Positions 4,790 to 50,435 of a stretch of DNA of 64,000 nt are shown here, piece by piece. The notes beneath the pieces are model-generated. The model did no database searches. It was given only the letters and a program-made list of their open reading frames with translations, and was not told the origin of the DNA. This DNA is from Candidatus Woykebacteria bacterium RBG_13_40_15 (GTDB lineage Bacteria > Patescibacteriota > Microgenomatia > Woykebacterales > RBG-16-39-9b). Both the position numbers and the translations under genes were made by a program. Numbering within the stretch: the stretch's first letter is position 1; the number at the start of each line of letters is the position of its first letter. The stretch spans positions 78,428 to 142,427 of the forward strand of contig MHCP01000025.1 in assembly GCA_001816655.1 (NCBI GenBank), read 5' to 3'.

Positions 4790-4798
4790 GGAGAAAAA

Positions 4799-5362: not shown

Positions 5363-5471
5363 CTCTTTTCGAGGGCATTTAATTAATCCTACCTTGACTT
5401 TTTCCCTAGAAAGAAATAAATTTTCTGATTAGATTGCCAGCTACACCAGCCAGACTAGAAAGGAGGGAGCC

Positions 5472-6200: not shown

Positions 6201-6263
6201 AAGGGTCAGCTGCAAACGTGGTTGGCCCTTCTGTCACATTTAATTGGTCGTTAATTTTTAGAT

Positions 6264-6953
6264 TTAGAATTTAAATTTGGCTACAAAATCGAAACTGCAA
6301 GTGCAAGGCGCATTTTTACAAACATGGCAATCATTAGAAAAAAGAGTTGAGAGTTCTTTTGAAACATCCACCTCAATTGAATTAAATACCCCCATCAGAC
6401 AGGAGTAAAGATCAGCTGCTTCTTTTGAAATTTTATCAAAATCCTCTTCTTTGTGCTGACCACGAAAAGTCAAGACGCTTTCAGAAAACTCGCCCAATTC
6501 TTCTGCCAGGTGAATACCCCCATGTTCCAAGCTCCTCTCCTCAGGAGGATAAATTCTCCTAAACATTTTTTGAAAGTCACTTAAAGTTGCTGGTTTCAAG
6601 GCCTTAACATTATTAGGAATGGATTTGCGTTTTTTAACCTTTTTCTCCTTACAGGAACATGGGCAAGTACTACAATAAGAGCAAAGATAAGGAAACCTAC
6701 TCCAAATTTCATCCTCAATTTGTATATGAAGATGGTTCATTATAGACATGAGCCAACTAAGTGAGAGTAAAAGATTAATTTTTGTTTTTTCCCGGTCTTT
6801 TTTTCGAATACCTTTCAGTCCCCTCATTGCAAATCTTTGTGTATTAGTCAGCAAGTTACCGACACTATAATTTCGCATATTGTGTAGACCATAGACTTGT
6901 TGAACGAAATCTTGGTATTCAGAAATTGTGCTATTAGGCTTAACCGATGGCAT
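6264..6953 (-). CDS. hypothetical protein with a MazG-like NTP-pyrophosphohydrolase motif and a Cys-rich insert
   Basis: IHLAEELGEFSE resembles the MazG EExGE metal-binding helix. CSYCSTCPCSC forms a Cys cluster. Confidence 0.35.
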   Translation of the reverse strand: MPSVKPNSTISEYQDFVQQVYGLHNMRNYSVGNLLTNTQRFAMRGLKGIRKKDREKTKINLLLSLSWLMSIMNHLHIQIEDEIWSRFPYLCSYCSTCPCSCKEKKVKKRKSIPNNVKALKPATLSDFQKMFRRIYPPEERSLEHGGIHLAEELGEFSESVLTFRGQHKEEDFDKISKEAADLYSCLMGVFNSIEVDVSKELSTLFSNDCHVCKNAPCTCSFDFVAKFKF

Positions 6954-7068
6954 AAGTGCCTCTATTGTAGTTTTAAATAGACCAAAAAGTCAATTATAGG
7001 TTAGTTTAGAGATGGCAAAATCAATTCTATGGTGAGCATGTCGAATCCATGTATAATTAAATAGGTGA

Positions 7069-7701
7069 TTGGGGGCTAAATTGAAAAACTTACACAGGTA
7101 TTATTCGATCTTCTCTTACAAGTTTACGCAGTTAATTATCGCTTGTACCGCCGTTTTTGTTCTATCGTTGGTAGTAAAACTATTTCCGATTTCACAACTA
7201 GAGATAGCCTTATTCCGTTTGATTAATCACCTACCAGGCGTGCTTTATTTACCTTTAGTTATAATAATGCAGGCTGGTGCTTATTTTTCGATACTTATCT
7301 TTGCAACTATTGCTTTTGTTTTTAAGAAAAGGTTTCTTGCAGCAGAGTTACTTTTTGGTGGGACGTTAGCTTGGATTCTAGCTTGGGCTATAAAGTTAGC
7401 TGTTGTTAGACCTAGGCCTTTTGAAGTTTTAAGCCAAGTTTCATTGCGTGAATCAAATGTATATGGTTTTGGATTTCCTTCCGCGCACGCAGCAGTTGCC
7501 GCCGCTCTTGTAGCTGTCGCAAGCTTTCACTTCAAGAGTTGTTATTCATGGCTACTTTGGGTAGCAGTATTGATTGTTGCTTTTGCAAGAATTTATATGG
7601 GAGTTCATCTTCCGCTTGATGTAGCGGGAGGAGTTGCCTTGGGTTGGTTTGCGGGCCTTTTTACCCAATTAATTTTCAAATCTACCAGAAAAAGCGATTG
7701 A
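7069..7701 (+). CDS. PAP2-family phosphatase (undecaprenyl-diphosphatase-like membrane phosphatase)
   Basis: The PAP2 motifs KxxxxxxRP (KLAVVRPRP), PSGH (FPSAHA) and SRxxxxxHxxxD (ARIYMGVHLPLD) are present, with multiple TM helices. Confidence 0.75.
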   Translation: MGAKLKNLHRYYSIFSYKFTQLIIACTAVFVLSLVVKLFPISQLEIALFRLINHLPGVLYLPLVIIMQAGAYFSILIFATIAFVFKKRFLAAELLFGGTLAWILAWAIKLAVVRPRPFEVLSQVSLRESNVYGFGFPSAHAAVAAALVAVASFHFKSCYSWLLWVAVLIVAFARIYMGVHLPLDVAGGVALGWFAGLFTQLIFKSTRKSD

Positions 7702-7703
7702 AT

Positions 7704-8156
7704 CTACTTAATATATTCGGTATAACCGCCAAGAAGGTTATAAACTTCCCTGAAGCTTTCTTGTTTAAACACCTCAAGTGCTTTGGAGCTTCGGCCGCCG
7801 GATTTACAGTAAATTAGATAGGCACCATTTTTGTCTAAGGAAGCAATTTTTGATTCGAAATCGCTTTGGTAAAAGTCAATGTTAGTAGCATTTTCAATAT
7901 GCCCTTGTGCAAACTCGTCGGGAGTTCTAATGTCAATTATAAGAAAGTCTTTATTACCAGAGTTTCGTTTGATTAGTTCCTTAGCGTCAGTGGTGGAGAT
8001 TGATTGATAAGTCTCCGTTTTAGCCTGTAAAATATTATTTGTATTACCCTCTTTGGAAACTTCTTTAGTTTTAGAGTTTCCAATGACAACAAAAATTCCA
8101 AAAATTGCTCCAATTATTAAAATACCTATTACGAAAAGTTTTGTATTGTTTTTCAT
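7704..8156 (-). CDS. membrane-anchored rhodanese-domain sulfurtransferase
   Basis: Rhodanese fold with the active-site loop CKSGGRS and one N-terminal TM. The start was chosen at MKNNTKLFVIG; the 40 codons upstream that extend the ORF track overlap a dispersed repeat and are probably not coding. Confidence 0.7.
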   Translation of the reverse strand: MKNNTKLFVIGILIIGAIFGIFVVIGNSKTKEVSKEGNTNNILQAKTETYQSISTTDAKELIKRNSGNKDFLIIDIRTPDEFAQGHIENATNIDFYQSDFESKIASLDKNGAYLIYCKSGGRSSKALEVFKQESFREVYNLLGGYTEYIK

Positions 8157-8209
8157 GTAGCAATTGTAACAGAAATAATTATTAATTTCTGGGGGACTGA
8201 GAGTTGTCT

Positions 8210-8271
8210 GGTGTACTAAATTTATCCTGAGCGAAGTCGAAGGAAAGCGAAGGTTTAGAACTTTTTGTGCC
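8210..8271. repeat. Dispersed repeat family, copy A (partial)
   Basis: ggtgtactaaatttatcctgagcgaag...gaaggtttagaactttttgtgcc shares the 3' block (GTAGGAGAAYYTTTTRGTGC-like) and the ttatcctgagc block with copy B. Confidence 0.6.
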
Positions 8272-8399
8272 GACATCTAACCAGCCGCTTCTAGAATCTT
8301 TAAAACAACTTTATGATGTTTTTCTGAATTTCTCAATTACTTAATGTTATATATTAGTATTGATTTTTTCAACTTAAAAAAGTATCATGCTATTATACG

Positions 8400-8768
8400 A
8401 CTAAGGTAAAACCAACATCAACGCTAGCTTTAGAAGAAGCAAGGGAAGCAGTAGTAAAAATTAGGACCTTAAAGCCTCTCCTTTCCCCAATGGACTAGGA
8501 AACTCTTGTTACTCTAATGGACAAGGAATTGATGGGGCACCTAGATAAAAGCCTGAAAGAGGCTGAAAGGGGTCAACTGGAACCTCTAAAAAACATTTTA
8601 ATTTAGATGTATCAAAGAGTTACTACTCTCTCAGCTAAGCGTTCTCTTAAAAAGCTCCCCTTGAAATTACGTGAGGAAATCATAAACGCTACCAAGGTAC
8701 TTGAGGAGAATCAGCTAGAAGGCGAAAAACTTTCCGGTAGTCTTAATTTCCTGTACTCCTTCTTGTAA
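8400..8768 (+). pseudogene. Decayed type II toxin–antitoxin remnant (antitoxin-like fragment plus truncated RelE/ParE-like toxin)
   Basis: Hand translation of 8607-8768 gives MYQRVTTLSAKRSLKKLPLKLREEIINATKVLEENQLEGEKLSGSLNFLYSFL. This is the N-terminal half of a RelE/ParE fold (KLSG.L.G.Y) that stops before the catalytic C-terminus. Upstream fragments (...LEPLKNIL) are antitoxin-like. No intact ORF of 60 aa or more is present. Confidence 0.4.
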
Positions 8769-9068
8769 TAATTCATTTTGCTGATAAAAGAGAAAACTTC
8801 TACAAGAAGTTGCGTAACCTTTTCCGCTAGATTAAAGACAAGTCTGTTTATTCTTTTAGGACTAAACCCTTCTTTGAAAACTTCTTCAATAGGGAACTTT
8901 TATGCTCTTATTTAAACAAAGAAAAACGACCCATTTCTGAGTCGTTTCTCCTCCTAAGAAAACCAATTTCTTGATTTGCTTAGGGAAAGGCAGGTCTCAC
9001 AGGCAGAGCCTCAAGCCTCTCCTTCAATTTCCTAAAGGATGGGTTTAGTTCGACGAGGCAGTTTGTGC

Positions 9069-9383
9069 TTAAGAAAGCCGCTCGTTCAGACTGTCAATTG
9101 CTACGGAGATGGCCGCATGGCGGTAATCCAGTTGCTCTAGCTCCTGAATTACCCAAGGCAATGCTTCCTCTAGGATAATCATTGCCTCCAGAGTCCGAAG
9201 CTGACTGCATAGGCCTCCGATTTCCTGCAGTCTGCCTCTTTCCAATTCCTCAGCAGACATGAATCTTCCGCCGCTCCTGACCCCACCTCTTGCCATAGCG
9301 GGCTCAATTCCCTTCAGGTTCTCGCAGTGCGTTTTTATAGAGGTTATTACTGCCTCGTGTGCAGGTTTTAGTTCTTTTGGCAT
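9069..9383 (-). CDS. hypothetical protein in a higher-GC segment
   Basis: A 104-aa ORF with no recognised motif. Confidence 0.25.
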   Translation of the reverse strand: MPKELKPAHEAVITSIKTHCENLKGIEPAMARGGVRSGGRFMSAEELERGRLQEIGGLCSQLRTLEAMIILEEALPWVIQELEQLDYRHAAISVAIDSLNERLS

Positions 9384-9527
9384 CTCTCACCTCCCTTTCT
9401 TGATTGCTAGATTATATCAAACTATGTCAAAGTTGTTTGCAATAGATTGATGCAGCCTTACACCCCTGGGGTGTTTTAGGTTTACACCTGCGGTCGTTTA
9501 TATTATTTTTGATTTGTAGTGATGATT

Positions 9528-9577
9528 ACAAGGACGGGCCTTGCAAGCTGACAAGCTCATAAATGAAAAAGGAGTAA
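9528..9577. repeat. Repeat family RepA, copy 1
   Basis: acaaggacgggccttgcaagctgacaagctcataaatgaaaaaggagta is about 48 bp and nearly identical to 12549-12596. It contains the perfect hairpin GCAAGG-ACGGG-CCTTGC followed by an AAGGAG tract. Confidence 0.8.
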
Positions 9578-9613
9578 TTCGTGCGTCAACCCCGCGGGTT
9601 GGAAGCTAAATAG

Positions 9614-9640
9614 ACAACGAAGGGGTTGGTTGTTTAAGGG
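9614..9640. repeat. Repeat family RepB, copy 1 (partial)
   Basis: acaacgaaggggttggttgtttaaggg matches the copies at 10751-10790 and 11442-11477. Confidence 0.7.
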
Positions 9641-9709
9641 ATCAAATCCTCTGTAATACCTGTAAAAGCACTTGAAAATCGTCTAAAAATCGTCTAAAAT
9701 TAGTCTAAT

Positions 9710-10747
9710 ATGTTTAATCCTCACTACACTATCACAAACCAGATTTTGGCAAATATCAAAAGGATTGCCGATTTAATAAACGAGTTGAACCATAGGCGCT
9801 TCCCTCATGTCGTTTTGGTTGAGTTGGAGAAAACCGCAAGAGCAGTTTCTACCTATGCCTCAACCAGCATTGAAGGAAATCCTCTCCCCTTAACTGAAGT
9901 TAAAAAAATTCTCAAATCAAAACCATCTCATGTTCGAGAGAGTGAAAAAGAGGTTTTAAATTATAACCAAGCATTACAAGATCTAAACAAAAAACTTGAA
10001 GAAGGTAAAGTTAAATTGTCCCTTGATTTAATATTAAAGATCCAAAAACAGGTGACTGAGGGTCTCTTACCACCTTTTGAGTCTGGACTTTTAAGGCAAA
10101 AACCTGTTGTAATAAACGACCCACGGACCAAACAAGTTAAGTTTCTACCTCCTGATATAAAAGATGTAGAACCTTTTTTAAAAGATTTAATAGGATTTGT
10201 AAACGCTAGCAGAGATAAAATCGATCCACTTATTTTAGCCGGTATATTTCATAAACAAATGGTAATAATCCATCCATTCACAGATGGTAACGGCAGAACT
10301 ACTCGTCTTGCAACAAAAGTACTTCTAGCTGAAATGGGATTAAATACCTTTAATCTGTTTAGCTTCGAGAATTACTACAACAGAAACGTTACAAGGTATT
10401 TTCAGACTGTCGGAGAGTTTGGAAACTACTATGATTTACTTGATAAGATCGATTTTACACCTTGGCTTGAGTATTTTACTGAAGGAATCATAGACGAGCT
10501 CCTCCGAATACAAAAACTCCTTCCGGAGGTTGGGATAAGCCCTGAAACGAAGCTTCAAACCTACCACCTAAAGATACTTGGTTTTATTGGAGAAAAAGGG
10601 TTTATTACTGACAGCGATTATGCACAATTGGGCACCCGTGCAAAAGCCACAAGAGCACTTGACTTTCAAAAACTACTGGAGCTTGGTTTAATCGAAAGAA
10701 AAGGAAAAGGCAAGGCAACTTACTATATTTTAAGAGAGAAACAATAA
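9710..10747 (+). CDS. Fic/Doc-family protein (Fic_N plus Fic core plus C-terminal winged-helix)
   Basis: The Fic catalytic motif HPFTDGNGRTTR matches HPFx[DE]GNGR. The C-terminus looks like a wHTH (KGFITDSDYAQLGTRAKATRALDFQKLLELGLIERKGKGKATYY). Confidence 0.8.
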   Translation: MFNPHYTITNQILANIKRIADLINELNHRRFPHVVLVELEKTARAVSTYASTSIEGNPLPLTEVKKILKSKPSHVRESEKEVLNYNQALQDLNKKLEEGKVKLSLDLILKIQKQVTEGLLPPFESGLLRQKPVVINDPRTKQVKFLPPDIKDVEPFLKDLIGFVNASRDKIDPLILAGIFHKQMVIIHPFTDGNGRTTRLATKVLLAEMGLNTFNLFSFENYYNRNVTRYFQTVGEFGNYYDLLDKIDFTPWLEYFTEGIIDELLRIQKLLPEVGISPETKLQTYHLKILGFIGEKGFITDSDYAQLGTRAKATRALDFQKLLELGLIERKGKGKATYYILREKQ

Positions 10748-10750
10748 GTC

Positions 10751-10790
10751 TGTAAATAAACAATGAGGGGGGGGGGTGGTTGTTGATTGA
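10751..10790. repeat. Repeat family RepB, copy 2 (carries a G9 homopolymer)
   Basis: tgtaaataaacaatgagggggggggtggttgttgattga. Confidence 0.7.
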
Positions 10791-10850
10791 CATAGCTAGG
10801 TATTATATACTTATAAATGTATTGTCCAAAATAGTTAAAGAGATACTGAC

Positions 10851-11171
10851 ATGAAACAGATAAATCGACTACCAAAACTTCCAAAAAAAATATTAGTTGA
10901 GATAAAAAAGGCTGATTCTGGAGATTTTTTAGCTTATATCCCCGAGTTTGACATTTTCACTGAGGCTGATAATCCCGCACACTTGATTCTCCAAGTTAAT
11001 GATTTGATATATGCTTACTTTGACGTCCCTAAAAAATATCAAGCACAACTTCATTTTTTCCCTCCGTTAGAAGTCTTGGAGGATTTGTGGGGTATTAGAG
11101 AGGTAAAACTACCAAAAGTCCAATTTAGCTCCTTCTACACCCCAAACAGCCACCTGCTCCAGTGCGTATGA
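10851..11171 (+). CDS. HicB-like antitoxin-family protein
   Basis: KKILVEIKKADSGDFLAYIPEFDIFTEADNPAHLILQVNDLIYAYF fits the HicB_like/UPF0150 pattern (I.K.EDG.Y.A.VPEL.G..T.GDT.EEA). It overlaps the downstream HicA-like gene by 10 nt. Confidence 0.5.
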   Translation: MKQINRLPKLPKKILVEIKKADSGDFLAYIPEFDIFTEADNPAHLILQVNDLIYAYFDVPKKYQAQLHFFPPLEVLEDLWGIREVKLPKVQFSSFYTPNSHLLQCV

Positions 11172-11410
11172 AATCATTTGGCTCCAAAGACTTAATCAGA
11201 TGTTTGCTTTGTTTAAAGTTTAAAGAAGGCAAACAGGTAGCGTCATCTCACATAAAATACCATTGTCCTAAGAAAGCAGCTGTTGGAACCCGCCCATTCA
11301 TAACCGTTATTCTAGGTAGAAAAACGTATGATCCGGTAACTAGGGGTAGATATTTGAACCAAATGAAAAAACTGGGATACTCTCTTGAAGAAATAAAAAA
11401 GTGTATGTAG
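11162..11410 (+). CDS. HicA-like mRNA-interferase toxin
   Basis: ...SKDLIRCL...KQVASSHIKYHCPKKAAVGTRPFITVILGRKTYDPVTRGRYLNQMKKLGYSLEEI carries the conserved SH at the YcfA/HicA GSH-motif position and the C-terminal 'I..agls.eef' tail. Confidence 0.55.
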   Translation: MRMKSFGSKDLIRCLLCLKFKEGKQVASSHIKYHCPKKAAVGTRPFITVILGRKTYDPVTRGRYLNQMKKLGYSLEEIKKCM

Positions 11411-11441
11411 CTACTGTGTTTTAACAGAAAAAATTTTTCGC

Positions 11442-11477
11442 TGTAAATAAACAATGAGGGGGTTGGTTGTTTAAGGA
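11442..11477. repeat. Repeat family RepB, copy 3
   Basis: tgtaaataaacaatgagggggttggttgtttaagga. Confidence 0.7.
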
Positions 11478-11530
11478 AATTTTGCCAACGAAAAAGGGGC
11501 ACTCCTTGGTTGATGAGTACCCCTGTTCGT

Positions 11531-11815
11531 CTACTCCCCTTCGGCTGCCGATGATCTCTGTGAGATGTCTTCTCTTTTACGAAAGGCCTTCTCGATTTCG
11601 CTTCTTGCAACCCTCTCCCAGCGCTTAATCACGAAGGGTGTGATTATACCGAGTATCAGGACTACAACCAGCAAGACTAGTCCTACATGTGGCCGGAGGA
11701 ATAGGACAATCAATGTCCCGATTACGCTGCTGCATGTGCTAAAGAGCCAGAAACCCGTTAGCCTTTCTCTCGTTTGGGTTACCCTCTCTTCTTCTTTTCT
11801 CCTTGTCGTCATTGT
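11531..11815 (-). CDS. small two-TM membrane protein (about 95 aa) in a GC-rich segment
   Basis: This is the C-terminal part of the 229-aa ORF-track entry, starting at the internal MTTRRKEE. There are two clear hydrophobic helices. The upstream part of that ORF overlaps the 177-aa ORF out of frame. Confidence 0.3.
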   Translation of the reverse strand, partial: TMTTRRKEEERVTQTRERLTGFWLFSTCSSVIGTLIVLFLRPHVGLVLLVVVLILGIITPFVIKRWERVARSEIEKAFRKREDISQRSSAAEGE

Positions 11816-11853
11816 GGTTCTCCCTCTCCGCTTTCCCGACTCCTGTCCGCGTG

Positions 11854-12387
11854 TTACTGAGAGTGCTTTCTCCCAAAGAGGAGACGGGCGCCCAAGATAA
11901 CAAGAATAAGATGGGCAAGAATTGTTCCCTTTACTCCTCTGAATTGGGCTTCTCGTGCTTCCGGTTGCGGTGCCTCTGTTTGCAGGAGTTGCAATTGAGC
12001 TGCATCTACCATCACCGCTCTTACTGCTGTGCCCAAGGCGAGTCGGTAGACACAACCTCCCCCCACTACTACACAGACGACCGCTGCCAGCAAAAGCGCA
12101 GCCCCAAGGGAGTTCCCGGGATTGACGTGATTCTCGGAATCGAGAATCGTAAAGCCGAAGACCGTCAAGGCTAATGTTGCTGCGATTGTAAGCGAAATAA
12201 TGATAGGCAGGATTTTCCATTCGCGTCCGCCGCCTATATGCTCTTCATCTTCGGCTAACTGTTTGGCTAGACGAAGACGATCCGAGATTGGCAATTTCGA
12301 TGCCCCGACGATTGCCCTACTAAGTAGGGTTAGTCGGTCTAGGACCTCTGCCAACTCGATTTCATCCGAGTCCCTGGCGTTAACCAT
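11854..12387 (-). CDS. membrane protein (177 aa) in a GC-rich segment
   Basis: An acidic N-terminal region of about 50 aa is followed by three or four hydrophobic helices. Confidence 0.35.
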   Translation of the reverse strand: MVNARDSDEIELAEVLDRLTLLSRAIVGASKLPISDRLRLAKQLAEDEEHIGGGREWKILPIIISLTIAATLALTVFGFTILDSENHVNPGNSLGAALLLAAVVCVVVGGGCVYRLALGTAVRAVMVDAAQLQLLQTEAPQPEAREAQFRGVKGTILAHLILVILGARLLFGRKHSQ

Positions 12388-12548
12388 GGGATCACTTCCT
12401 TTCGCTACTGACTATTTCCTCTCCCTTTTCTTGAGTTATTTGCTGGATTTAATTGTGCTGTTTTTGATTGTAGCACAAGGATTTATTTTTTGGAAGTTAA
12501 GCGCTTATTGTGAGTTGGTTAGGGGTTGAACTCATAAATTTTATAACT

Positions 12549-12596
12549 GCAAGGACGGGCCTTGCAAGCTGACAAGCTCATAAAAGAAAAGGAGTA
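12549..12596. repeat. Repeat family RepA, copy 2
   Basis: gcaaggacgggccttgcaagctgacaagctcataaaagaaaaggagta. The shared tttttgatt(t)gtag block also appears upstream in both copies. Confidence 0.8.
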
Positions 12597-12640
12597 CCCC
12601 ACCACCTGTGTTTGGTAAGGTACTCCTCGCGTTCTCTCTC

Positions 12641-12817
12641 CTAGCTTCCTTGGTATTCTGGTCGGATTGCTATTATGAGCAGAACGGCCAGAACAGCGAT
12701 AATGACTACACTAAACACTGCAATCAGGGGAGGAAGAAAACAAACGGTCAAGCTGCTTAGAACGCCAGCAGAAAGACCTATCCTTATTAGTTTTATTTTC
12801 CACTGGATGTATTTCAC
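12641..12817 (-). CDS. possible small membrane protein (58 aa, GTG start), below the ORF-track cutoff
   Basis: Hand translation of the minus strand gives VKYIQWKIKLIRIGLSAGVLSSLTVCFLPPLIAVFSVVIIAVLAVLLIIAIRPEYQGS. Confidence 0.2.
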   Translation of the reverse strand: MKYIQWKIKLIRIGLSAGVLSSLTVCFLPPLIAVFSVVIIAVLAVLLIIAIRPEYQGS

Positions 12818-12904
12818 TTCCCTCCCCCTTCCTTGTGAGATATCAGCAGACCGATGGCTGCAAAAGCGGCGAAGAGTAAGACCGCTACTTGGTCTCGTCT
12901 TTTC

Positions 12905-13198
12905 TTACTTGCCGAAAGGGCCGAAGGAACATAGAGTCGGCAGGCTCCCTAAGGTCGTCGTTGTGGCTTCGGCTTTTCCGCATGCTTCCACCCGCGTGTT
13001 GGTTACCAGTTGATAACCACCGAAGACAAGCACTCCGGCTACTAGGATTACTCCTAGGTACCGAGTACCCTTCCTAGCCTTTTCGAAAAAGGCCTTCAGG
13101 CGCGGGCCGAAAGCCAGACCCAAACCGAGTAGTGCTACCAATCCAAAAAAGACCAGCAGCGTTAGGTTGCAGGAGTTGATTGCGATTGTTAAGAGCAT
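12905..13198 (-). CDS. small membrane protein (97 aa) in a GC-rich segment
   Basis: Two or three hydrophobic helices; MLLTIAINSCNLTLLVFFGLVALLGLGLAF... Confidence 0.3.
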   Translation of the reverse strand: MLLTIAINSCNLTLLVFFGLVALLGLGLAFGPRLKAFFEKARKGTRYLGVILVAGVLVFGGYQLVTNTRVEACGKAEATTTTLGSLPTLCSFGPFGK

Positions 13199-13685
13199 CG
13201 ATCTCTCCTTTCGATTTTTTGCTCTTTTCTAGAACCTGCCTGCTTGTAATTGTTACTAGTTTAAAATTATAGGGTGTAAAAGTCAATAGGTTTAGGGTCT
13301 ATGCTCTAAAATTGAGGCTAAAAAATGCTGTGGTCAATAACAAGGATCGGATTTTCTTCAAAAAAGGAAAAGGCAGACCAAAAAGATGCTTCATGCGAAT
13401 GCATCCGGCCTGCCCATCAGTCCGTGGGTGCTGGCTCTCTCTGTTGCGGTCCCTGATAAAGCTGGACTGCGCCTTATCTTCCACCGCGAGCGGACACCGC
13501 AGGTTTCGCGCGTAGCGGACGATCGCCTCTCTACTTCTAAGTAAGAGGCACAAATCGCTGGGCCCCTAGCAGTTAACTGCATCTGCAGATCGGTAGAGAA
13601 TACCGCTGCGTTGACCCATTTGCGCCGCGTTGTGCGAAGCCAGGCAAGTATAACAAAGAAAAGTAGGAAAGTCAATACTATGGGG

Positions 13686-14011
13686 TGCTGAGGTTGATTG
13701 GTGCACTGTATTAGATTTTACTTTAAGACTTTTTAACTGGCAAAAAGTATAAAAACCAAACAAACCAGAGTAACCAGAGTAAATCCTTCCAGTCTTGGGT
13801 TAAAATTCCTGGGATGCCCAAAAAACCGATAAATCCTAAAAAACCAAGTGTCCAGGTTTTTTTCATAATTTTATTATACACCGAGTTCCGAATCATGAGT
13901 GATGCTTGTCCTGAGCTAGTTCACACTGAGCTGAGTTTATCCTGAGCAGCTCGCAATGAACTCGCTGTGAACTGAAGTGAAGGGAAGTGAAGTAGGAGAA
14001 CTTTTAGTGCC
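13686..14011. repeat. Dispersed repeat family, copy B (long form, about 326 bp)
   Basis: The 5' end tactatggggtgctgaggtt and the 3' end gaagtaggagaacttttagtgcc match copies C and D. The internal cctgagc blocks match copy A. Confidence 0.6.
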
Positions 14012-14019
14012 TATATTTG

Positions 14020-14056
14020 AACAAAAGAAAACGGCGATAAGTTTCCCTATCGCCGC
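14020..14056 (-). terminator. Rho-independent terminator for the minus-strand gene ending at 14077
   Basis: The hairpin GGCGATA-GGGAAAC-TTATCGCC (minus-strand sense) is followed by GTTTTCTTTTGTT. Confidence 0.5.
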
Positions 14057-14076
14057 ATTCAGAATGTAACAATCCC

Positions 14077-14415
14077 TCAGTCCAGAGCCTCCCGATCACT
14101 GATAGAACGAACCAAGGGCCTGCCAAGGCGCGATGCCAGCACCATTTCGTGGGCAACAAAGCTGCCCATCGTCTCGATTAGGTCTATTGCTAATCGGCCT
14201 CTTGCTTCCGGGCTCTTGCATCTGCAGCTACAGATGATTGCTAGAAGAGCCAGATCCTCGGCCATTTGCCCTGCTCTCTCAGGGGCTATCGGTTCACCAT
14301 GGTTCAGAAACGATTCCCTCCGGGCCTCTTCGAGCAGCTCTCTTGCTATCGATATTATCTCCTGCTCGTCTTCACTTCTCTGAGCTTTGAGGCCCCTTCT
14401 GCCTCCATATCCCAT
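14077..14415 (-). CDS. hypothetical protein (112 aa), GC-rich
   Basis: ORF only. It contains a CSCRC cluster. Confidence 0.3.
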   Translation of the reverse strand: MGYGGRRGLKAQRSEDEQEIISIARELLEEARRESFLNHGEPIAPERAGQMAEDLALLAIICSCRCKSPEARGRLAIDLIETMGSFVAHEMVLASRLGRPLVRSISDREALD

Positions 14416-14457
14416 GGCAGTCTCCTTCTTTCTACTGGCGTTAGAATTACAAGTTGT

Positions 14458-14892
14458 TCAGCCCGCAGCAACCTTTGGTTTTACGCGTTTTAGATGAACT
14501 GGATGTATAAACCAGCTCATTGACCGAGCAAGGAAAACACACTTCTCGTCCTCTTTCCCGAAATCTACCAACACGTAGGTGGGGAAGATGGTTTCATTTT
14601 CCCTGACCATCATAGTCCATTCGGAAAACTCTCCGATAAGGCGGACATCATCACCGTGGTAGTACTGATGAAATGGGTCGCCCCAAGACTCCACTCCGTG
14701 GCGGTCGGGTGGTTCACTTGCAGGCTTCAGGCCAGATTTTTGCATGTAGATAGGTAAGCCGTCTGTACGGCCATCCGCATCATATGCCAGGACAGCCACC
14801 AAGCTGCCTTGGTCCGCCTCCACACGAAGGGTGGCATCCTGAAGGCGATCTATGAGCCTGAACAACTCTACTTTCGTGGGTTGATTCCGCAT
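14458..14892 (-). CDS. hypothetical protein (144 aa), GC-rich
   Basis: ORF only. It lies on the same strand as its neighbours with short gaps, which suggests an operon. Confidence 0.35.
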   Translation of the reverse strand: MRNQPTKVELFRLIDRLQDATLRVEADQGSLVAVLAYDADGRTDGLPIYMQKSGLKPASEPPDRHGVESWGDPFHQYYHGDDVRLIGEFSEWTMMVRENETIFPTYVLVDFGKEDEKCVFLARSMSWFIHPVHLKRVKPKVAAG

Positions 14893-14966
14893 TACTTGCT
14901 CCCTCCCTTCCTTGTGTACTATTAGCTGTTTCCCTACGAACTGCTGGCACAGTTTCTATACGCTAG

Positions 14967-15326
14967 CTACCTGACAGTTTTAACTTTCCATATACCAGAT
15001 CCTCTCGATGATGGTGCGACCAACAGGTCCCCACTTATAAGTGGCCTTGGTCGTAACCTGTTTGATATGTGTGTCTTAGGGCAGGCTAATCGAAACGAGT
15101 TCTCATTTCGTCTAGCTCGATATCCACAACCAATGTCAGTGTACACTTCCCGACCATCGGTTATCTCCGCGAGCTTACTAGAAGTAATCTCGGTATCTCT
15201 AGGTATTCTCGCAAGATTGCCGTACGTATAGTCAAAATCCCACTCTGTCAAAAGAATGGTAACCGGGTTTCTACTGGCCGTTTGTTGGGTTTTTTTGGCA
15301 AACCGCCCAAAGATCCTAGATAGCAC
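14967..15326 (-). CDS. hypothetical protein (119 aa), GC-rich
   Basis: ORF only. Confidence 0.3.
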   Translation of the reverse strand: MLSRIFGRFAKKTQQTASRNPVTILLTEWDFDYTYGNLARIPRDTEITSSKLAEITDGREVYTDIGCGYRARRNENSFRLACPKTHISNRLRPRPLISGDLLVAPSSRGSGIWKVKTVR

Positions 15327-15430
15327 AATCGTCTCCTTTCGAGTGTTAGAAATCTTTCTCCCAAAGCCGTCTAGGAACCTATTTAACTGTTAACGCAGAT
15401 GATTATACCAGAAAGGAATATAAAATCAAG

Positions 15431-15511
15431 TACTATGGGGTGCTAGGGTCGTCTAGTGTACGACGTTACTTGTCCTTCGTAGCTTTAGCGAAGTAGGAGA
15501 ATCTTTTGTGC
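15431..15511. repeat. Dispersed repeat family, copy C (compact complete form, 81 bp)
   Basis: tactatggggtgctagggtcgtctagtgtacgacgttacttgtccttcgtagctttagcgaagtaggagaatcttttgtgc. Confidence 0.7.
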
Positions 15512-15526
15512 AACAGCGCGACTGTT

Positions 15527-15555
15527 GACAGCTGTACACAAAAATGTAATACTGG
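15527..15555 (+). promoter_or_regulatory. putative sigma70-type promoter of the phd–relE operon
   Basis: TTGACA, then a 16-nt spacer, then TAATAC immediately upstream of the antitoxin start. Confidence 0.3.
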
Positions 15556-15559
15556 CACT

Positions 15560-15832
15560 ATGTCTACAAAAACATTACCTGTTACCGAAGCTAGGAAGAA
15601 TTTAACAGATTTAGTGGGCAAGGCCTCAAGTCAATTGGATGAATATGTTATTACCGTGAAAGGCAAACCAAAAGCAGTTCTGATAAGCGCTGTTGAATTT
15701 GAAGGATGGAAAGAAACAAATGAAATTTTATCCAATCCAAAACTCGTCAAAGCTATACATGAAGGTGAGGAAGACATAAAAGCTGGTAGGATTGTAACCC
15801 TCGAAGGCCTCAAAAAAGAGTTTCATGTATAA
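15560..15832 (+). CDS. Phd/YefM-family antitoxin
   Basis: MSTKTLPVTEARKNLTDLVGKAS...ITVKGKPKAVLISAVEFEGWKET has the canonical Phd/YefM N-terminus. Its stop overlaps the toxin start. Confidence 0.75.
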   Translation: MSTKTLPVTEARKNLTDLVGKASSQLDEYVITVKGKPKAVLISAVEFEGWKETNEILSNPKLVKAIHEGEEDIKAGRIVTLEGLKKEFHV

Positions 15833-16082
15833 ACTAATTCTTTCTGCAAGAACAAGAAAAGAATTAAAAAAAGTTCCCAAACAACATAGAGAAGCAATAC
15901 TTCTAGCATTAGATGAAGTTAAAAACGATCCTTTTGAGGGAAAACCTTTATCCCGAGAACTTATCGGTAGATTTAGCTACCGAGTTGGGGTCTATAGAGT
16001 TATTTACCAAGTGAATAAACAAAACCAAACTATTTATATTTCAACTGCCGCTCATAGAGGAAAGGTTTATAAAAGAAAGTAG
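15825..16082 (+). CDS. RelE/ParE-family toxin
   Basis: GKPLSRELIGRFSYRVGVYRVIYQVNKQNQTIYISTAAHRGKVY has the R(V)GDYR(V)IY...V..IGHR pattern. Confidence 0.8.
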   Translation: MYKLILSARTRKELKKVPKQHREAILLALDEVKNDPFEGKPLSRELIGRFSYRVGVYRVIYQVNKQNQTIYISTAAHRGKVYKRK

Positions 16083-16096
16083 TTAAAATCATTGGT

Positions 16097-16130
16097 TTCG
16101 TCTAATGTACGACGTTAGAATCTTTTGTGC
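16097..16130. repeat. Dispersed repeat family, copy D (partial)
   Basis: ttcgtctaatgtacgacgttagaatcttttgtgc reproduces the gtctaRtgtacgacgtta block and the atcttttgtgc 3' end of copy C. Copies C and D directly flank the phd–relE cassette. Confidence 0.7.
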
Positions 16131-16236
16131 GTATATTTAAAAATAGCTACTTAGCTTATCAGAATCTTAATTAATGAGTGGCTCTCTCCTTTCTCCATGA
16201 GAGTTCCACTCGGTAACAGGCTGATGCTTTGTCTGC

Positions 16237-16695
16237 TTAATCGGTTTGGGTAGTGCCCCCTAGATCCACTACTCGGACGAAACCAGTTTCGGAGAACAGT
16301 GTGAGGGGTAGGAGGCTATCGAACGATACCACCTTGAAACCCTCTCGAACCCCGATTGCCTCACCGCCCCAGAGACTAAGACGGACCCGGATCATGATCC
16401 AGCAGTATTCGAAAAGGAACCTTGTCTTTATCTCGAACTCTACTATCCGATCCGCTAACTCCATCTTAGCTTCATACGTGTTCGCTGCCTTGAGGGAACG
16501 TTCCGCCTCGGCGGCCTTCTCAAGGAAGAGAGAAGCGGCAGAAACCACTTCTATCTCATCCTCGATCAGATCGCCGACAATCCTTTCGCCTTGGCGAACG
16601 GGTGTTAGGATCGTGAGAGGCCTCCTTAGTTCCCTTCTCGGCAAGGGAACTGTGAATGGCAGTCTCTTTAGCCAACTACCTCTTCTTGTAGGCAT
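16237..16695 (-). CDS. hypothetical protein (152 aa), GC-rich
   Basis: ORF only. Confidence 0.3.
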   Translation of the reverse strand: MPTRRGSWLKRLPFTVPLPRRELRRPLTILTPVRQGERIVGDLIEDEIEVVSAASLFLEKAAEAERSLKAANTYEAKMELADRIVEFEIKTRFLFEYCWIMIRVRLSLWGGEAIGVREGFKVVSFDSLLPLTLFSETGFVRVVDLGGTTQTD

Positions 16696-16871
16696 AGAAA
16701 ACTCCTTCCTTCTTGCTCGCTCCTTTATTGTTATGGGATTATACCATAGTTATGGAATTTTTACTTTGTGTATTGGCCCAAAAATACTAGAATGACAATA
16801 ATAAAAGAAGAATATGTTAAAATGGTTGTTGTAACAACATAAATTGAAGATAAACACACCTTAAAAAGTGC

Positions 16872-16948
16872 TGGGGTGGGTGAGGGGGTTCGAACCCCCG
16901 ACCTTCCCCTCCACAGGGGGACGCTCTACCGATTGAGCTACACCCACC
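16872..16948 (-). tRNA. tRNA-His (anticodon GTG) with encoded G-1
   Basis: G-1 plus acceptor GTGGGTG/CACCCAC, anticodon stem TCCCC/GGGGA with loop CTGTGGA, T arm GGGGG-TTCGAAC-CCCCT, discriminator C, CCA encoded. Confidence 0.85.
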
Positions 16949-16951
16949 AAG

Positions 16952-17419
16952 TTATCCAATAAATCCGTGTTTAAGATAATGGCAGTTTCTGCAAAGTAAG
17001 GCTAAATTAGAAACATCGTTATTCTTTCTATCTCCATCTCTATGATGAACTACCAAGACTCGCTCGTCAGAAAAATTACAACATTCACATTTTAACACTT
17101 TTGAATGGTTAAATAAAACTTTCCTGTAAGAACTAACTCCTGTCCGCCAATTGGGATTATTTATGCTGAATCTTAAATTTTTATTTGCCCAGCTGGCATG
17201 GCAAGAATAGCTACAAAAGAATAAATTACTTTTAGATTTCTTGAATTGAGCTGGGGTTCTGTAAAGTGCATTACCACAATGTGCGCATTTTACAGTCCTT
17301 CCTTTTTTCTGGGCTTCAAACTTACATTTATCCGAGCAAAATTTACCCCACCCAATTTTAATATGTCTCGGCTTCGCATAAAATTTTCCGCTGCAAATTT
17401 TACAATTTAACCAAGGCAT
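16952..17419 (-). CDS. HNH endonuclease with N-terminal Cys-rich zinc-finger region
   Basis: HHRDGDRKNNDVSNLALLCRNCHYLKH is an HNH motif. Multiple CxxC pairs lie upstream. Confidence 0.75.
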   Translation of the reverse strand: MPWLNCKICSGKFYAKPRHIKIGWGKFCSDKCKFEAQKKGRTVKCAHCGNALYRTPAQFKKSKSNLFFCSYSCHASWANKNLRFSINNPNWRTGVSSYRKVLFNHSKVLKCECCNFSDERVLVVHHRDGDRKNNDVSNLALLCRNCHYLKHGFIG

Positions 17420-17521
17420 TTTTAAATTCTAACCCGGAGGTTCACAAAATGTCAATCAAAAAGGTTGTGTTAAAAACGATTGGACACCCATGTTATTTAG
17501 GGAGAGGTCGAAAATATGGAG

Positions 17522-18643
17522 TTATTCGGGACGATTATCGAGCCCAACAGCCTCTGAGAGGCTTTCTAAGCCGTCTTTTTTCAAAAGCCGAGCTAATCCC
17601 TGGTTTATTTCAGCTACGACCTGAGGCCCGTCGTAAATCATCCCGGTTATTAGTTCTATCAGAGAAGCGCCCAGTTTTATTTTCTTATAAGCATCTTCTG
17701 CAGAAAAAACTCCCCCACAACCAATTATTACGAATTTTTTACCAAATTTTCTATAAATATAGGAGATCAATTCGTTTGATGCTGCCTCTGCTGGCTTACC
17801 ACTAATTCCTCCTGCTACCGGAACAGATTTATCAGCTAATTTAATCCTTTTTTTAGTCAAATTTGAACACACAAACCCTGTTATTTTGTGTCGTTCAGCA
17901 ACATTAATTATTTCATCAACCTGACTTGTCGGCAAATCCGGTGGCATCTTTAAAAAGATGGGTTTTTTTGTTTCGGTTTTATCAATTTCGGCTAATAATA
18001 ACTCAAGTTTTCCAGGATCAGTAAATGGTTCTCCACCAAAAGCGTTGGGGCAGCTGATATTTATGGTAAAAAATGCTCCAATTTCTAAAAACGATTTGTA
18101 GGCCTTGACATAATCAGCAATTCCGTCTTTAAGGACAGAAGTTTTAGCGCTATTTGTTTTCGCTACATTTACCCCAACCGGAATCGAAAAATTTTTGTTT
18201 CCTAATCTTTTACTTATTTTTTTGCAGCCTTCGTTTCTAAGACCGTAATTAACAACAATCCCCTTTGATTTTGGTATTCTCCAAAGGCGGGGTTTTGGGT
18301 TTCCACTGCAGGGCTCTCCGGTAACAGAACCGATTTCAGCAAAACCAAACCCAACAGAAGGTAAAATATTTGTTAAATAACCATCTTTGTCGAAACCAGC
18401 CGCTAAACCGATTGGATTTTTAAAGCGAATTCCGGCAAGCTCTTGGCTCAAGGTTTTGTTCGAATAATTGAATAAAACTCCGGTTTTAAAACGAGTTACC
18501 GGATTAGAACCTAAAAATCGGCCAGTATTGATTGCAAGGTTATGAACTGTTTCAGCCTCTATTAAAAATAAAACCGGCCTCAAAATCGCCCGATAAAGAA
18601 AACCGAGAAGAGTATTTCGTACTGAAATAATTATCTCCATCAA
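17522..18643 (-). CDS. pyrD: dihydroorotate dehydrogenase (quinone), class 2
   Basis: FKNPIGLAAGFDKDG, GFGFAEIGSVT, NISCPN and IIGCGGV are class-2 DHODH signatures. An N-terminal hydrophobic segment is present. Confidence 0.85.
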   Translation of the reverse strand: MMEIIISVRNTLLGFLYRAILRPVLFLIEAETVHNLAINTGRFLGSNPVTRFKTGVLFNYSNKTLSQELAGIRFKNPIGLAAGFDKDGYLTNILPSVGFGFAEIGSVTGEPCSGNPKPRLWRIPKSKGIVVNYGLRNEGCKKISKRLGNKNFSIPVGVNVAKTNSAKTSVLKDGIADYVKAYKSFLEIGAFFTINISCPNAFGGEPFTDPGKLELLLAEIDKTETKKPIFLKMPPDLPTSQVDEIINVAERHKITGFVCSNLTKKRIKLADKSVPVAGGISGKPAEAASNELISYIYRKFGKKFVIIGCGGVFSAEDAYKKIKLGASLIELITGMIYDGPQVVAEINQGLARLLKKDGLESLSEAVGLDNRPE

Positions 18644-18657
18644 TTTTCTATTTTACA

Positions 18658-19251
18658 CTAATCTTCCAACCGACGAGAAATTTCTTCCCAATTTACCACA
18701 TTCCAAAAAGTTTCGATGTATTTTTTCTTTTCGTTTTTATAGTCTATGTAGTATGCATGCTCAAACATATCCAGAACCATTAGAATTCTACATGTTGGGT
18801 ATATGTTGGTATTATGCTTCTCTATCTGCATTAGAAGCAACTGACCTGTTTGGTTGCAGTATGTAAGAGCTACCCAACCCGAACCTTCAACAGAAGAGGC
18901 TGTTAATGAGAATTCTTTGCGAAACCGCTCAAAAGTCCCAAACTCTTTTTTTATCAATTTCGAAAGCGACCCAGATGGTTCCTTTCTCGCCTTATTAGCA
19001 GGCATCATATTGGCCCAAAACATCGAATGTAAAACATGGCCCCCAAGGTTAAACGAAAGAGCTTTTAAGACTCCTTTTATATCAAGATTGGAACCCTCTT
19101 TTCTATCCTTATCCAATTTTTCCAGAATGTTATTTACTTCAGTTACATAAGCTGCGTGATGAATTTTTAACTGCTCAGAAGACAAAAACGGAATTAAATC
19201 ACCATATCCGTAAGGCAGCGGTGGTAGTGTGTACAAACCTTTCTGCGGCAT
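18658..19251 (-). CDS. sodA: Fe/Mn superoxide dismutase
   Basis: LPPLPYGYGDLIPFLSSEQLKIHHAAY and DMFEHAYYIDYKN (the D..EHAYY signature). Confidence 0.85.
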   Translation of the reverse strand: MPQKGLYTLPPLPYGYGDLIPFLSSEQLKIHHAAYVTEVNNILEKLDKDRKEGSNLDIKGVLKALSFNLGGHVLHSMFWANMMPANKARKEPSGSLSKLIKKEFGTFERFRKEFSLTASSVEGSGWVALTYCNQTGQLLLMQIEKHNTNIYPTCRILMVLDMFEHAYYIDYKNEKKKYIETFWNVVNWEEISRRLED

Positions 19252-19817: not shown

Positions 19818-21113
19818 ATGCCAATGTCAATCGACTTCCAGAGCCGCCTGTTCCCCCATCTTTCCAAAATCGTTGATCACTATGGAACCCCTTTCCATAT
19901 CTACGATGTGAGGGGTCTTCTGGAAAATGGAACAGACCTAACACGCAAGTTCATGGGCCAATTCCAATTCAAGGAGTTCTTCGCTGTCAAAGCGAACCCC
20001 AACCCGGAGGTTCTGAAGCTGATGCGGGGAATGGGTTTTGGCTTCGACTGCAGCTCTATTCCAGAGCTTGTCCTTGCCACTCTGGTCGGTGCAAAACCAG
20101 GCGATGTCATGTTTACCTCAAATAACACAAGTACGGCCGAATTTCAGGCAGCACTTGACATAGGCTGCATTTTCAACCTGGACGACATTACCATGATTGA
20201 GAATGTCCCAGAACCCTTTCCTAGACTCATTTGTTTCCGTTACAACCCCGGGGAACGGCGAAGTGGAACCAGTTTCATCGGCGTACCAGTCGAGGCAAAG
20301 TACGGAGTCCGTCACGATCAGCTCATCAACGCATACCGCATGGCAATGGCTCGAGGTGCGAACCGGTTTGGGCTACACACTATGATCGCCTCCAACACCT
20401 TGGACTGTAGCTATATGATAGAGACAGTCCGAATGCTGCTTGAGGTGGTCGAGGAAGTCTCGGCAGAACTCGGGATCAAATTCAAATTCATCAACATGGG
20501 TGGTGGAATTGGAATACCCTACCACCCAAATGATGCACCGTTCGACCTTTTCCAACTGGCCCACGAAGCCCGATACTTGCTACACCGCTTCAAGGAAAGA
20601 AACGGTTACGTTCCGGCGCTTTACATGGAATCGGGTCGAGCAATGACCGGTCCCTTCGGAATACTGGTCACGCGAGTCCTCAACCGAATGAGTAAGCACC
20701 GGGAATATGTAGGCGTTGACGCCTGCATGTCCTCCCTAATGCGACCTGGAATGTACCGGAATAGTCAGATAGCAGAAGGTGCGGGTTACCACCATATCAC
20801 AGTACTAAATAGGTACGGTCACCCCAAAAGTGGGCCTACTGAAGTAGTGGATATTGTCGGTTCGCTCTGCGAGAACTGCGACAAGTTCGCCGTCCGAAGA
20901 GAGCTCCCTATGGCAGAGGTGGACGACCTAGTTGTCATCCACGACACAGGCGCTCACGGTCACGCCATGGGGTTCATCTACAACGGACGGCTTCGTCCCG
21001 CGGAGCTTATGCTTTGCGAGGACGGTAGTGTTCGACTTATCCGAAGAGCAGAAACCATCGAGGACTATCTTCGAACAGTCGCAGATCTCGAACCAAACGT
21101 TATGCAGCTGTAG
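19818..21113 (+). CDS. Fold-type III PLP decarboxylase of the Orn/DAP/Arg family (diaminopimelate decarboxylase-like)
   Basis: FAVKANPNPEVLKLM is the PLP-Lys motif. NMGGGIGIPY is the Gly-rich loop, ESGRAMTGPFG is present, and GSLCENCDKF is the CE..D active-site motif. GC is higher than the core genes. Confidence 0.65.
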   Translation: MPMSIDFQSRLFPHLSKIVDHYGTPFHIYDVRGLLENGTDLTRKFMGQFQFKEFFAVKANPNPEVLKLMRGMGFGFDCSSIPELVLATLVGAKPGDVMFTSNNTSTAEFQAALDIGCIFNLDDITMIENVPEPFPRLICFRYNPGERRSGTSFIGVPVEAKYGVRHDQLINAYRMAMARGANRFGLHTMIASNTLDCSYMIETVRMLLEVVEEVSAELGIKFKFINMGGGIGIPYHPNDAPFDLFQLAHEARYLLHRFKERNGYVPALYMESGRAMTGPFGILVTRVLNRMSKHREYVGVDACMSSLMRPGMYRNSQIAEGAGYHHITVLNRYGHPKSGPTEVVDIVGSLCENCDKFAVRRELPMAEVDDLVVIHDTGAHGHAMGFIYNGRLRPAELMLCEDGSVRLIRRAETIEDYLRTVADLEPNVMQL

Positions 21114-21149
21114 AATCAACCAAACTCAAACGAAAGGGAAGGTGATATT

Positions 21150-49628: not shown

Positions 49629-49657
49629 CTAACTCTTCCTTCGTTAATAACCCATAG

Positions 49658-50170: not shown

Positions 50171-50435
50171 AACTCTCTTCCTGTCCCTTTCTGTCCCGTT
50201 TCCTTTCTTCTAAGTAAGGAAGGTTAAGGAGAAAGAAGATCCTTATTAGGATCTAGTTGACAGGCAGCAGAATCATTATAGGGAGATAATAAAGCTCCTG
50301 GAGTTATCACTCCCTGTTGCCTTAACCTAAGAAACTCATTTTAAAAAATGGGTGGTTTAGGAGGAAAAACGAGTCGTCCATCCTTCGTCAAAACTACGGA
50401 GGATAAAAAGGGCTCGTTTTTCTTTTGGTTGAGAT

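Follow-up and report, generated by a model that had tools for sequence, protein, structure and literature searches.

Positions 11531–15326 of a 64,000-nucleotide (nt) window of DNA from Candidatus Woykebacteria bacterium RBG_13_40_15, a member of the candidate phyla radiation (CPR; Microgenomates) represented here by a 146-kb contig of a Rifle aquifer assembly, carry seven small open reading frames (ORFs) designated A119, B144, C112, D97, E58, F177 and G93. We consider this 3.8-kb stretch to be probably a mosaic of independent accessory cassettes and not one system, and put the probability of this reading at roughly 60%. Our verdict is that the stretch is orphan cargo of a variable genomic island adjacent to a tRNA gene; the reading of it as a single system is disfavoured.

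The original prediction had described a continuous, GC-rich train of seven co-oriented minus-strand genes and had proposed it as one undescribed module. Much of this description was borne out. All seven ORFs are present on the minus strand, the last of them being 93 amino acids (aa) long (11531–11812), and their G+C content (GC) of 0.43–0.54 is higher than that of the neighbouring Fic, Phd and ParE genes (0.33–0.37) and the window mean of 0.415. The clear terminator after the 112-aa ORF, the membrane character of the hydrophobic ORFs, the lack of a recognisable motif, the bounding repeats and the toxin–antitoxin setting were also recovered, as described below. The continuity of the train and the unity of the module were not, as the stretch consists of at least three promoter/terminator units, is interrupted at 13199–14076 by a region that holds none of the seven ORFs and has unrelated elements between its gene groups.

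Three predicted promoter-to-terminator units

We observed that the stretch splits into three units, each running from a predicted promoter to a predicted terminator: B144 and C112, perhaps preceded by A119 (unit 1), D97 and E58 (unit 2), and F177 and G93 (unit 3). The stop codons of C112, E58 and G93 are each followed directly by a terminator, and GC falls to 0.34–0.35 in the gaps between the units. There is no paralogy among the seven ORFs, nor between them and anything else in the window. All the promoter-like sites, ORFs and terminators of this section are on the minus strand.

Unit 1 is headed by the promoter-like site P1 (15402–15429; TTGATT-16-TGgTATAAT, 10 of 12 matches and a TG extension), which is preceded by the box AGCACCCCATAGTA, common to 13676–13689. 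The three ORFs of this unit are soluble, no transmembrane helix being predicted in any of them by simple hydropathy. A119 (14967–15326; 119 aa, GTG start) is of uncertain coding status. B144 (14458–14892; 144 aa, predicted mainly beta) follows a GGAGG Shine–Dalgarno site, and C112 (14077–14415; 112 aa) is an ORFan with an AAGGAG Shine–Dalgarno site. The intrinsic terminator of unit 1 (14031–14056), located 21 nt past the C112 stop codon, has an 11-bp stem with six G–C pairs followed by TTTTCTTTT, and a copy of the D4/D5 junction repeat (13979–14023) comes after it.

Unit 2 starts from the promoter-like site P3 (13258–13286; TTGACT-17-TAAACT) and comprises D97 (12905–13198; 97 aa) and E58 (12641–12817; 58 aa, GTG start); it ends at an intrinsic terminator of 16 pairs followed by TTCTTTT (12589–12628). 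Unit 3 has the promoter-like site P4 (12538–12567), with an extended -10 element, TGCTACAAT, at 12467–12475 as the alternative (read directly). It comprises F177 (11854–12387; 177 aa), in which an acidic N-terminal domain of about 58 aa precedes the transmembrane segments, and G93 (OGY23468.1), a transmembrane hairpin with charged N- and C-terminal tails. The terminator hairpin of unit 3 (11491–11524; GGGGTACTC...GAGTGCCCC then TTTTT) was read directly and was unlisted by the terminator scan. Simple hydropathy predicts two transmembrane helices each in D97, E58 and G93 and three in F177, in line with the membrane character that had been claimed for the hydrophobic ORFs.

The region at 13199–14076 separates unit 1 from unit 2 and contains two elements. 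One is an AT-rich (GC 0.34), 57-aa membrane ORF at 13723–13896, outside the seven. It matches DUF3796 (PF12676) above the Pfam threshold (E-value 1.9e-6; 28.7 bits against a cutoff of 24.8), yet the match covers profile positions 3–41 of 120 and the ORF is therefore truncated; unlike its neighbours it is AT-rich. DUF3796 is the sole family assignment in the 11531–15326 stretch. The other element is a block of ∼280 nt (13360–13645) that has the highest GC of the island (0.56–0.61). It has its own promoter-like site, P2 (13647–13675; TTGACT-17-TGtTATACT, with the same upstream box as P1), and ends in a hairpin and T-run terminator (13360–13414). No coding signal was detected in any frame of the block, and it has no Shine–Dalgarno-led ORF. 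Its folding z-score is -2.2, and no Rfam match was obtained even at E up to 5. From these sequence features, the block is a candidate for a ∼280-nt non-coding RNA or a dead gene remnant. An 11-nt identity to the E. coli RNase P RNA was dismissed, as the Rfam search gave no RNase P match at E up to 5.

Two further observations concern this block. A 20-nt segment on its plus strand (13589–13608) is 80% complementary to the D-arm region of tRNA-His (16914–16933), which may be chance. The block also contains a hairpin, GCCTCTTACTTAGAAGTAGAGAGGC, at about 13526–13550, and contigs L001 (1772 bp) and L002 (995 bp), from two assemblies, both stop at base 13533. This shared contig end suggests a branch point or a structural variant in the population.

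The occurrence of B144 elsewhere also points to units that stand alone. A full HMMER search of 1.84 billion representatives returned one homolog, P0013 (154 aa, 50% identity, E 5e-28), in which motifs are conserved over the whole length; B144 has this one relative among about 15 billion proteins. Judged by its sequence conservation, B144 is a genuine gene whose family is very rare. P0013 is located on a 1.7-kb Logan contig (L083), where it is a lone GC-rich gene (52.5%) amid DNA of 36–41% GC. It has its own promoter and terminator and is followed by a T5orf172/MUG113 gene, upstream of which the same promoter module is repeated. Nearly the same module thus stands before both genes, at 30–70 and 670–710 of L083 (AAATTTGACTTT...AAAAAGTACAATCC), and this mirrors the repeated promoter modules of the island. 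The suggestion that the set might recur beside Fic or toxin–antitoxin genes in other genomes found no support here. The sole homolog adjoins the T5orf172 gene, and this short contig has no A119- or C112-like sequence and no Fic or toxin–antitoxin gene.

An AlphaFold2 model of B144 reached a predicted local distance difference test score of only 57, and a Foldseek search with it gave no fold match. A match of B144 to PHROG 5618 (E 9e-4) was rejected because the divergent homolog P0013 did not show it. We also compared B144 with its allele on L001. Across 1772 bp, L001 shows five differences from the window, and all of them are confined to 43 bp of B144 (14615–14657, codons 79–93), with three amino-acid changes and one synonymous change. 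Such clustering suggests a short recombination tract or a variable patch, and not scattered mutation.

The island beside tRNA-His and its junction repeats

The stretch lies within an island of ∼8.6 kb (about 8240–16870) bounded by a rhodanese gene (7704–8160) and, at its right edge, by tRNA-His (16872–16947). The island has a tRNA flank and a composition unlike the core genome, two of the marks of a tRNA-integrated island. Its GC swings cassette by cassette, with blocks reaching 0.50–0.61 against the window mean. GC-rich minus-strand ORFan cassettes, namely I104 (9069–9383), the seven-ORF stretch and H152 (16237–16695), are set among AT-rich plus-strand cassettes, namely a decayed ParE-like pair (8390–8770), Fic, a pair of 106 and 82 aa, and Phd/ParE. 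The junctions between GC-rich and AT-rich DNA are spanned by independent assemblies (L001, L002 and L084) at 98.7–99.9% identity; the mosaic is therefore not an assembly chimera. Genomic islands are reported to be frequent in Patescibacteria (PMC12455944), and that paper cites Hsiao et al. (2005) for the enrichment of islands in general in novel genes.

Four repeats mark the cassette junctions. D1 is present in three copies (9607–9639, 10753–10785 and 11444–11476) that flank the Fic cassette and the two-gene cassette that follows it. D3 has two copies, upstream of F177 (12543–12590) and of I104, the 35-nt core of the former being identical to 9529–9563. D4 has four copies (8239–8283, 13979–14023, 15487–15511 and 16117–16130). 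D15 is joined to D4 at the upstream edge of unit 1 (15449–15511) and again at 16098–16130, and the two together bracket the Phd/ParE cassette as 33-nt direct repeats. The stretch is thus bounded by D1 (11444–11476) on one side and by D15/D4 (15449–15511) on the other. The D3 copies also contain a hairpin, CAAGG-N5-CCTTG, and on the minus strand each of them (9529–9569 and 12550–12590) opens a 20-codon mini-ORF with MSLSACKARPC as its first 11 residues and no Shine–Dalgarno site; these mini-ORFs are probably non-coding.

These repeats raise the alternative that the island is a cassette array shuffled by site-specific recombination at D1, D3, D4, D15 and the 13533 hairpin, with a recombinase encoded elsewhere; such an array would be integron-like without being an integron. 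The repeats coincide exactly with the cassette junctions and are otherwise absent from the 64 kb, direct repeats of 33 nt surround Phd/ParE, contigs of two assemblies stop at the same base inside a hairpin, and GC alternates by cassette. On the other hand, no integrase or recombinase domain was found among the Pfam-scanned ORFs at 4094–19251, a scan that left out the small plus-strand ORFs at 8290–8770 except 8607–8768. A simple consensus scan of both strands of 8000–17000 (not the covariance model of IntegronFinder) gave no attC candidate and hence no attC-like R''/R' pair, and an integron was rejected on this account. These cassettes also differ from those of integrons in having promoters of their own. 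There is also no second array to compare: D3 was absent from the genome, metagenome and viral collections searched, and D15/D4 and D1 from the viral collection. The repeats could simply be duplicated regulatory DNA. We regard recombination-driven shuffling as unlikely, although it fares better than the other alternatives.

Less probable again is the proposal that the stretch encodes one multi-gene defence, abortive-infection or immunity system, in which A119, B144 and C112 would be soluble sensors or effectors acting with the four membrane proteins from several co-oriented units. The ORFs are co-oriented, GC-rich and alike in the style of their Shine–Dalgarno sites, and the island also holds Fic and toxin–antitoxin genes. 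The ribosome-binding regions of E58 (12826–12847) and B144 (14905–14926) are 82% identical over 22 nt (repeat D14, GCTRATA...CACAAGGAAGGG), a likeness that hints at a common donor or at a duplicated translation-initiation region. The box upstream of both P1 and P2 could mean co-regulation. This box, CCATAG-N0-4-TTGAYT, occurs four times in the window against 0.08 expected (7019–7032, 13670–13683 and 15424–15438 on the minus strand and 49652–49663 on the plus strand), the two island copies having the 14-mer AGCACCCCATAGTA in common. It may be the site of a shared regulator. However, besides the ORF-less block and the A119 operon, the box heads a MazG-like gene (7019–7032) and another GC-rich ORFan (49652–49663), both unrelated to the stretch. 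Separate promoters and terminators for each unit, the unrelated DUF3796 fragment and ORF-less block between them, and a B144 homolog that has no partner also argue against one system. PADLOC-DB v2 gave no match below E 0.08 for the seven ORFs, H152, I104 or the DUF3796 ORF.

A more elaborate version of the shuffling scheme is a long shot. In it, the island would be an integrase-less CPR cassette-capture locus, in which GC-rich genes are placed behind copies of native promoters (the AGCACCCCATAGTA/TTGAYT box and D3) and swapped at hairpin or repeat junctions (D1, D3, D4, D15 and 13533), and the block at 13360–13645 would be a new structured RNA.

The remaining parts of the island and its surroundings can be described briefly. 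The Pfam-scanned ORFs at 4094–19251 include YidC, SPFH, PAP2, rhodanese, Fic, HNH, SOD and Phd/ParE, as well as several ORFs with no significant domain; PyrD was recognised via its homologs, outside the Pfam scan. The left edge of the island (8390–8770, plus strand) carries a decayed toxin–antitoxin pair that includes a 53-aa truncated ParE-like ORF (8607–8768), 31% identical to the intact ParE at 15825–16082. The overlapping 106/82-aa pair (10851–11410, plus strand) appeared HicB/HicA-like by eye, but no Pfam match was obtained at E up to 0.5; the 82-aa ORF, with its start as read, is absent from the protein collection. Between contig L084 and the window (8956–9831), we counted 11 substitutions over 876 bp, all of them intergenic, with none in the coding sequences of I104 (315 bp) and Fic (122 bp). 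Because all these substitutions are intergenic, I104 appears to be under constraint.

There are other GC-rich genes in the window outside the island, so that GC of foreign appearance is a habit of the genome at large and no peculiarity of the seven-ORF stretch. One example is a self-contained GC-rich ORFan cassette at 49650–50230 (plus strand; 137 aa, A2172_04800), which has the CCATAG-TTGAYT promoter box, a strong Shine–Dalgarno site and a terminator-like hairpin with the 12-mer CTTCTAAGTAAG, also present in the 13533 hairpin. Another is a 2.3-kb block at 19818–22346 (plus strand; GC 0.53–0.57) with adjacent genes for an Orn/DAP/Arg decarboxylase and a class I/II aminotransferase, which is probably another horizontally acquired segment.

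Coding status and relatives of the seven ORFs

The original prediction had left the coding status of the ORFs uncertain and had proposed codon periodicity as the check. We counted 11 ORFs of at least 90 aa in 11400–15450, against 2.1 ± 1.3 in composition-preserving shuffles. A lone ORF of 95–120 aa is not significant at this GC, the longest ORF of a shuffle averaging 117 aa. Among the 35 ORFs of at least 40 aa that overlap 11400–15450, only six are preceded, at suitable spacing, by a Shine–Dalgarno match of 5 nt or more, and these are exactly A119, B144, C112, D97, E58 and F177; G93 has GGAGAGGGAG ahead of its internal ATG.

Coding scores were obtained from 3-periodic Markov models trained on long host genes, or by leave-one-out on the GC-rich ORFs. 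In the order-1 models, the annotated frame was the best of six for B144, C112, D97, F177 and G93, and for E58 under leave-one-out training; the same was true of the similar GC-rich island ORFs H152 and I104. The order-2 models were noisier, another frame being slightly ahead for E58 and, once, for G93. The periodicity scores favoured six ORFs, and the doubt stayed with A119, which has no frame-specific coding signal and a higher GC at second than at first codon positions. This ORF does have AAGGAG 6 nt before its GTG and is called as a gene on the ENA contig L001. The 229-aa entry of the ORF track, which had been cited as a competing frame, also has a higher GC at second than at first codon positions and lacks a Shine–Dalgarno match. 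From these features it looks non-coding, a shadow of F177 joined to the G93 frame.

In allelic variants of D97, F177, C112, B144 and I104, all of them from the same aquifer, the only changes are substitutions, with no frameshift or stop; the D97 variant has two amino-acid changes. Five of the seven ORFs correspond to the GenBank hypothetical proteins A2172_04595 to 04615 (G93, F177, D97, C112 and B144). Exact look-ups in the protein collection did not retrieve E58 or A119, and the numbering of the locus tags leaves no space for them; both are therefore apparently unannotated in GenBank.

We then consider the relatives of these ORFs. None of the seven belongs to a significant family in Pfam, PADLOC, PHROGs or NCBIfam, sequence searches of the PDB gave no match, and neither Pfam nor NCBIfam placed a toxin or antitoxin domain in any of them, the Phd/ParE and truncated ParE of the island being outside the stretch. 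Against 5.8 billion clusters, B144, F177 and C112 retrieved only same-aquifer twins of ∼98–99% identity, and C112 has no homolog there beyond its 99% twin. Nothing was found in IMG/VR protein scans with F177, C112 and the B144 alignment, in a metagenome scan with that alignment, or in the JGI metagenome contigs and GTDB genomes searched. Searches of phages and plasmids with the whole stretch (blastn), and of phages with B144 (tblastn), were likewise negative, and exact look-ups for F177, its variant P0008 and D97 gave no contig. In the loci fetched by synteny with PyrD, neither the seven ORFs nor the island DNA had any relative. A literature search gave no description of such arrays in CPR. 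As no family match was obtained in any search, the seven ORFs are ORFans.

These data bear on the view that the stretch is decaying foreign DNA, most of its ORFs being chance open frames of GC-rich sequence that are not expressed. Its proponent could cite the lack of individual significance of ORFs of 95–120 aa, the several overlapping alternative frames, the missing coding signal of A119, the missing homologs of F177 and C112, and the few population differences, which are mostly amino-acid changing. We consider it very unlikely, since strong Shine–Dalgarno sites stand before exactly these ORFs, the annotated frame is the best of six in six of the seven, and B144 is conserved over its full length at 50% identity. 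Paired transmembrane helices are predicted, terminators lie right behind stop codons, and the allelic variants have neither a frameshift nor a stop. From the sequence evidence, most of the seven ORFs look like real, lineage-restricted genes, with A119 doubtful.

Possible roles and comparison with known systems

If the stretch is a mosaic of independent cassettes, the GC-rich genes would be horizontally acquired and lineage-restricted, and each of the three units would probably act on its own. B144 may be a stand-alone small cytosolic protein. D97/E58 and F177/G93 are most likely small hairpin membrane proteins at the cell envelope; our guess, by analogy, is that these pairs could be a toxin and its immunity partner, or exclusion-type pairs, either of which would fit a toxin–antitoxin island.

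Several points weigh against the mosaic reading or its functional part. The promoters, of sigma-70 type, and the terminators are consensus predictions. As A119 has no coding signal, unit 1 may carry a leader of ∼500 nt instead of a first gene. The argument for independence relies on one homolog, on a 1.7-kb contig with 113 nt upstream of the gene. No direct repeat of the 3' end of tRNA-His was found within 7000–17500, and because neither this repeat nor, in the ORFs scanned, an integrase was found, the limits of the island are defined by composition and repeats alone. The best PyrD match in the PyrD-anchored synteny comparison is 63% identical, so that no close relative showed an empty site. 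For an envelope role, what speaks is shape (two-helix hairpins, charged cytoplasmic tails and paired genes) and neighbourhood; the homology and fold searches were all negative and the sole structure model is of low confidence.

Two weak family matches of the membrane proteins, G93 to PspM/Rv2743c and F177 to DUF202 (each with E about 0.01), were rejected, as both are below the cutoff and fall on transmembrane segments, and the former is also composition-prone. Remnants of a phage lysis cassette, with G93 or E58 as a class II holin-like protein and F177 or D97 as its partner or antiholin, are very unlikely: the two helices and the charged tails on both sides of G93 fit the shape of a class II holin, but its PHROG holin match is not significant (E 0.43), the Pfam and PHROGs scans found no endolysin, spanin or other phage gene in the island, and the phage and IMG/VR collections gave no match.

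The mosaic, if true, would be a clean and well-delimited example of an ultra-small CPR genome that stores strain-specific, horizontally acquired orphan genes, in tiny self-contained promoter-to-terminator cassettes interleaved with addiction modules beside a tRNA gene. Its main value is for annotation, E58 and perhaps A119 being apparently missing from GenBank and the 229-aa ORF being spurious. The extremely rare families could be taken into expression and toxicity tests. The stretch demonstrates no new mechanism and opens no long-standing question; only the repeat-marked junctions and the ORF-less, transcribed-looking block could prove new.

Among known systems, small membrane toxins with immunity partners and class II holins resemble the membrane pairs. 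Class II holins are small, have two transmembrane domains and a charged tail at the C terminus, and are encoded beside an endolysin. The likeness is in shape only: proteins of 58–97 aa, two-helix hairpins, charged cytoplasmic tails and paired genes in toxin–antitoxin-rich surroundings. In contrast to those systems, there is no sequence or profile similarity, and no antisense RNA, endolysin or bacteriocin gene is nearby.

Integrons carry the tyrosine recombinase IntI beside an array of mostly promoterless cassettes, with attC sites (RYYYAAC...GTTRRRY, with paired L''/L') at the cassette 3' ends, and CALIN elements are attC clusters without an integrase. The island is like these arrays in its run of small, mostly co-oriented cassettes of no assigned function, in its interspersed toxin–antitoxin cassettes and in its boundary repeats. 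It is unlike them in that no IntI was found, each cassette has its own promoter and terminator, and the toxin–antitoxin cassettes are on the opposite strand.

Finally, we compared the locus with tRNA-adjacent genomic islands. It departs from them in that neither an integrase nor a repeat of the tRNA 3' end was found, its GC alternates per cassette instead of forming one block, and it has internal, island-specific repeats. It resembles them in its tRNA neighbour, in a composition unlike the core, in the company of Fic and toxin–antitoxin genes with hypothetical genes that have no relatives, and in its population microdiversity.

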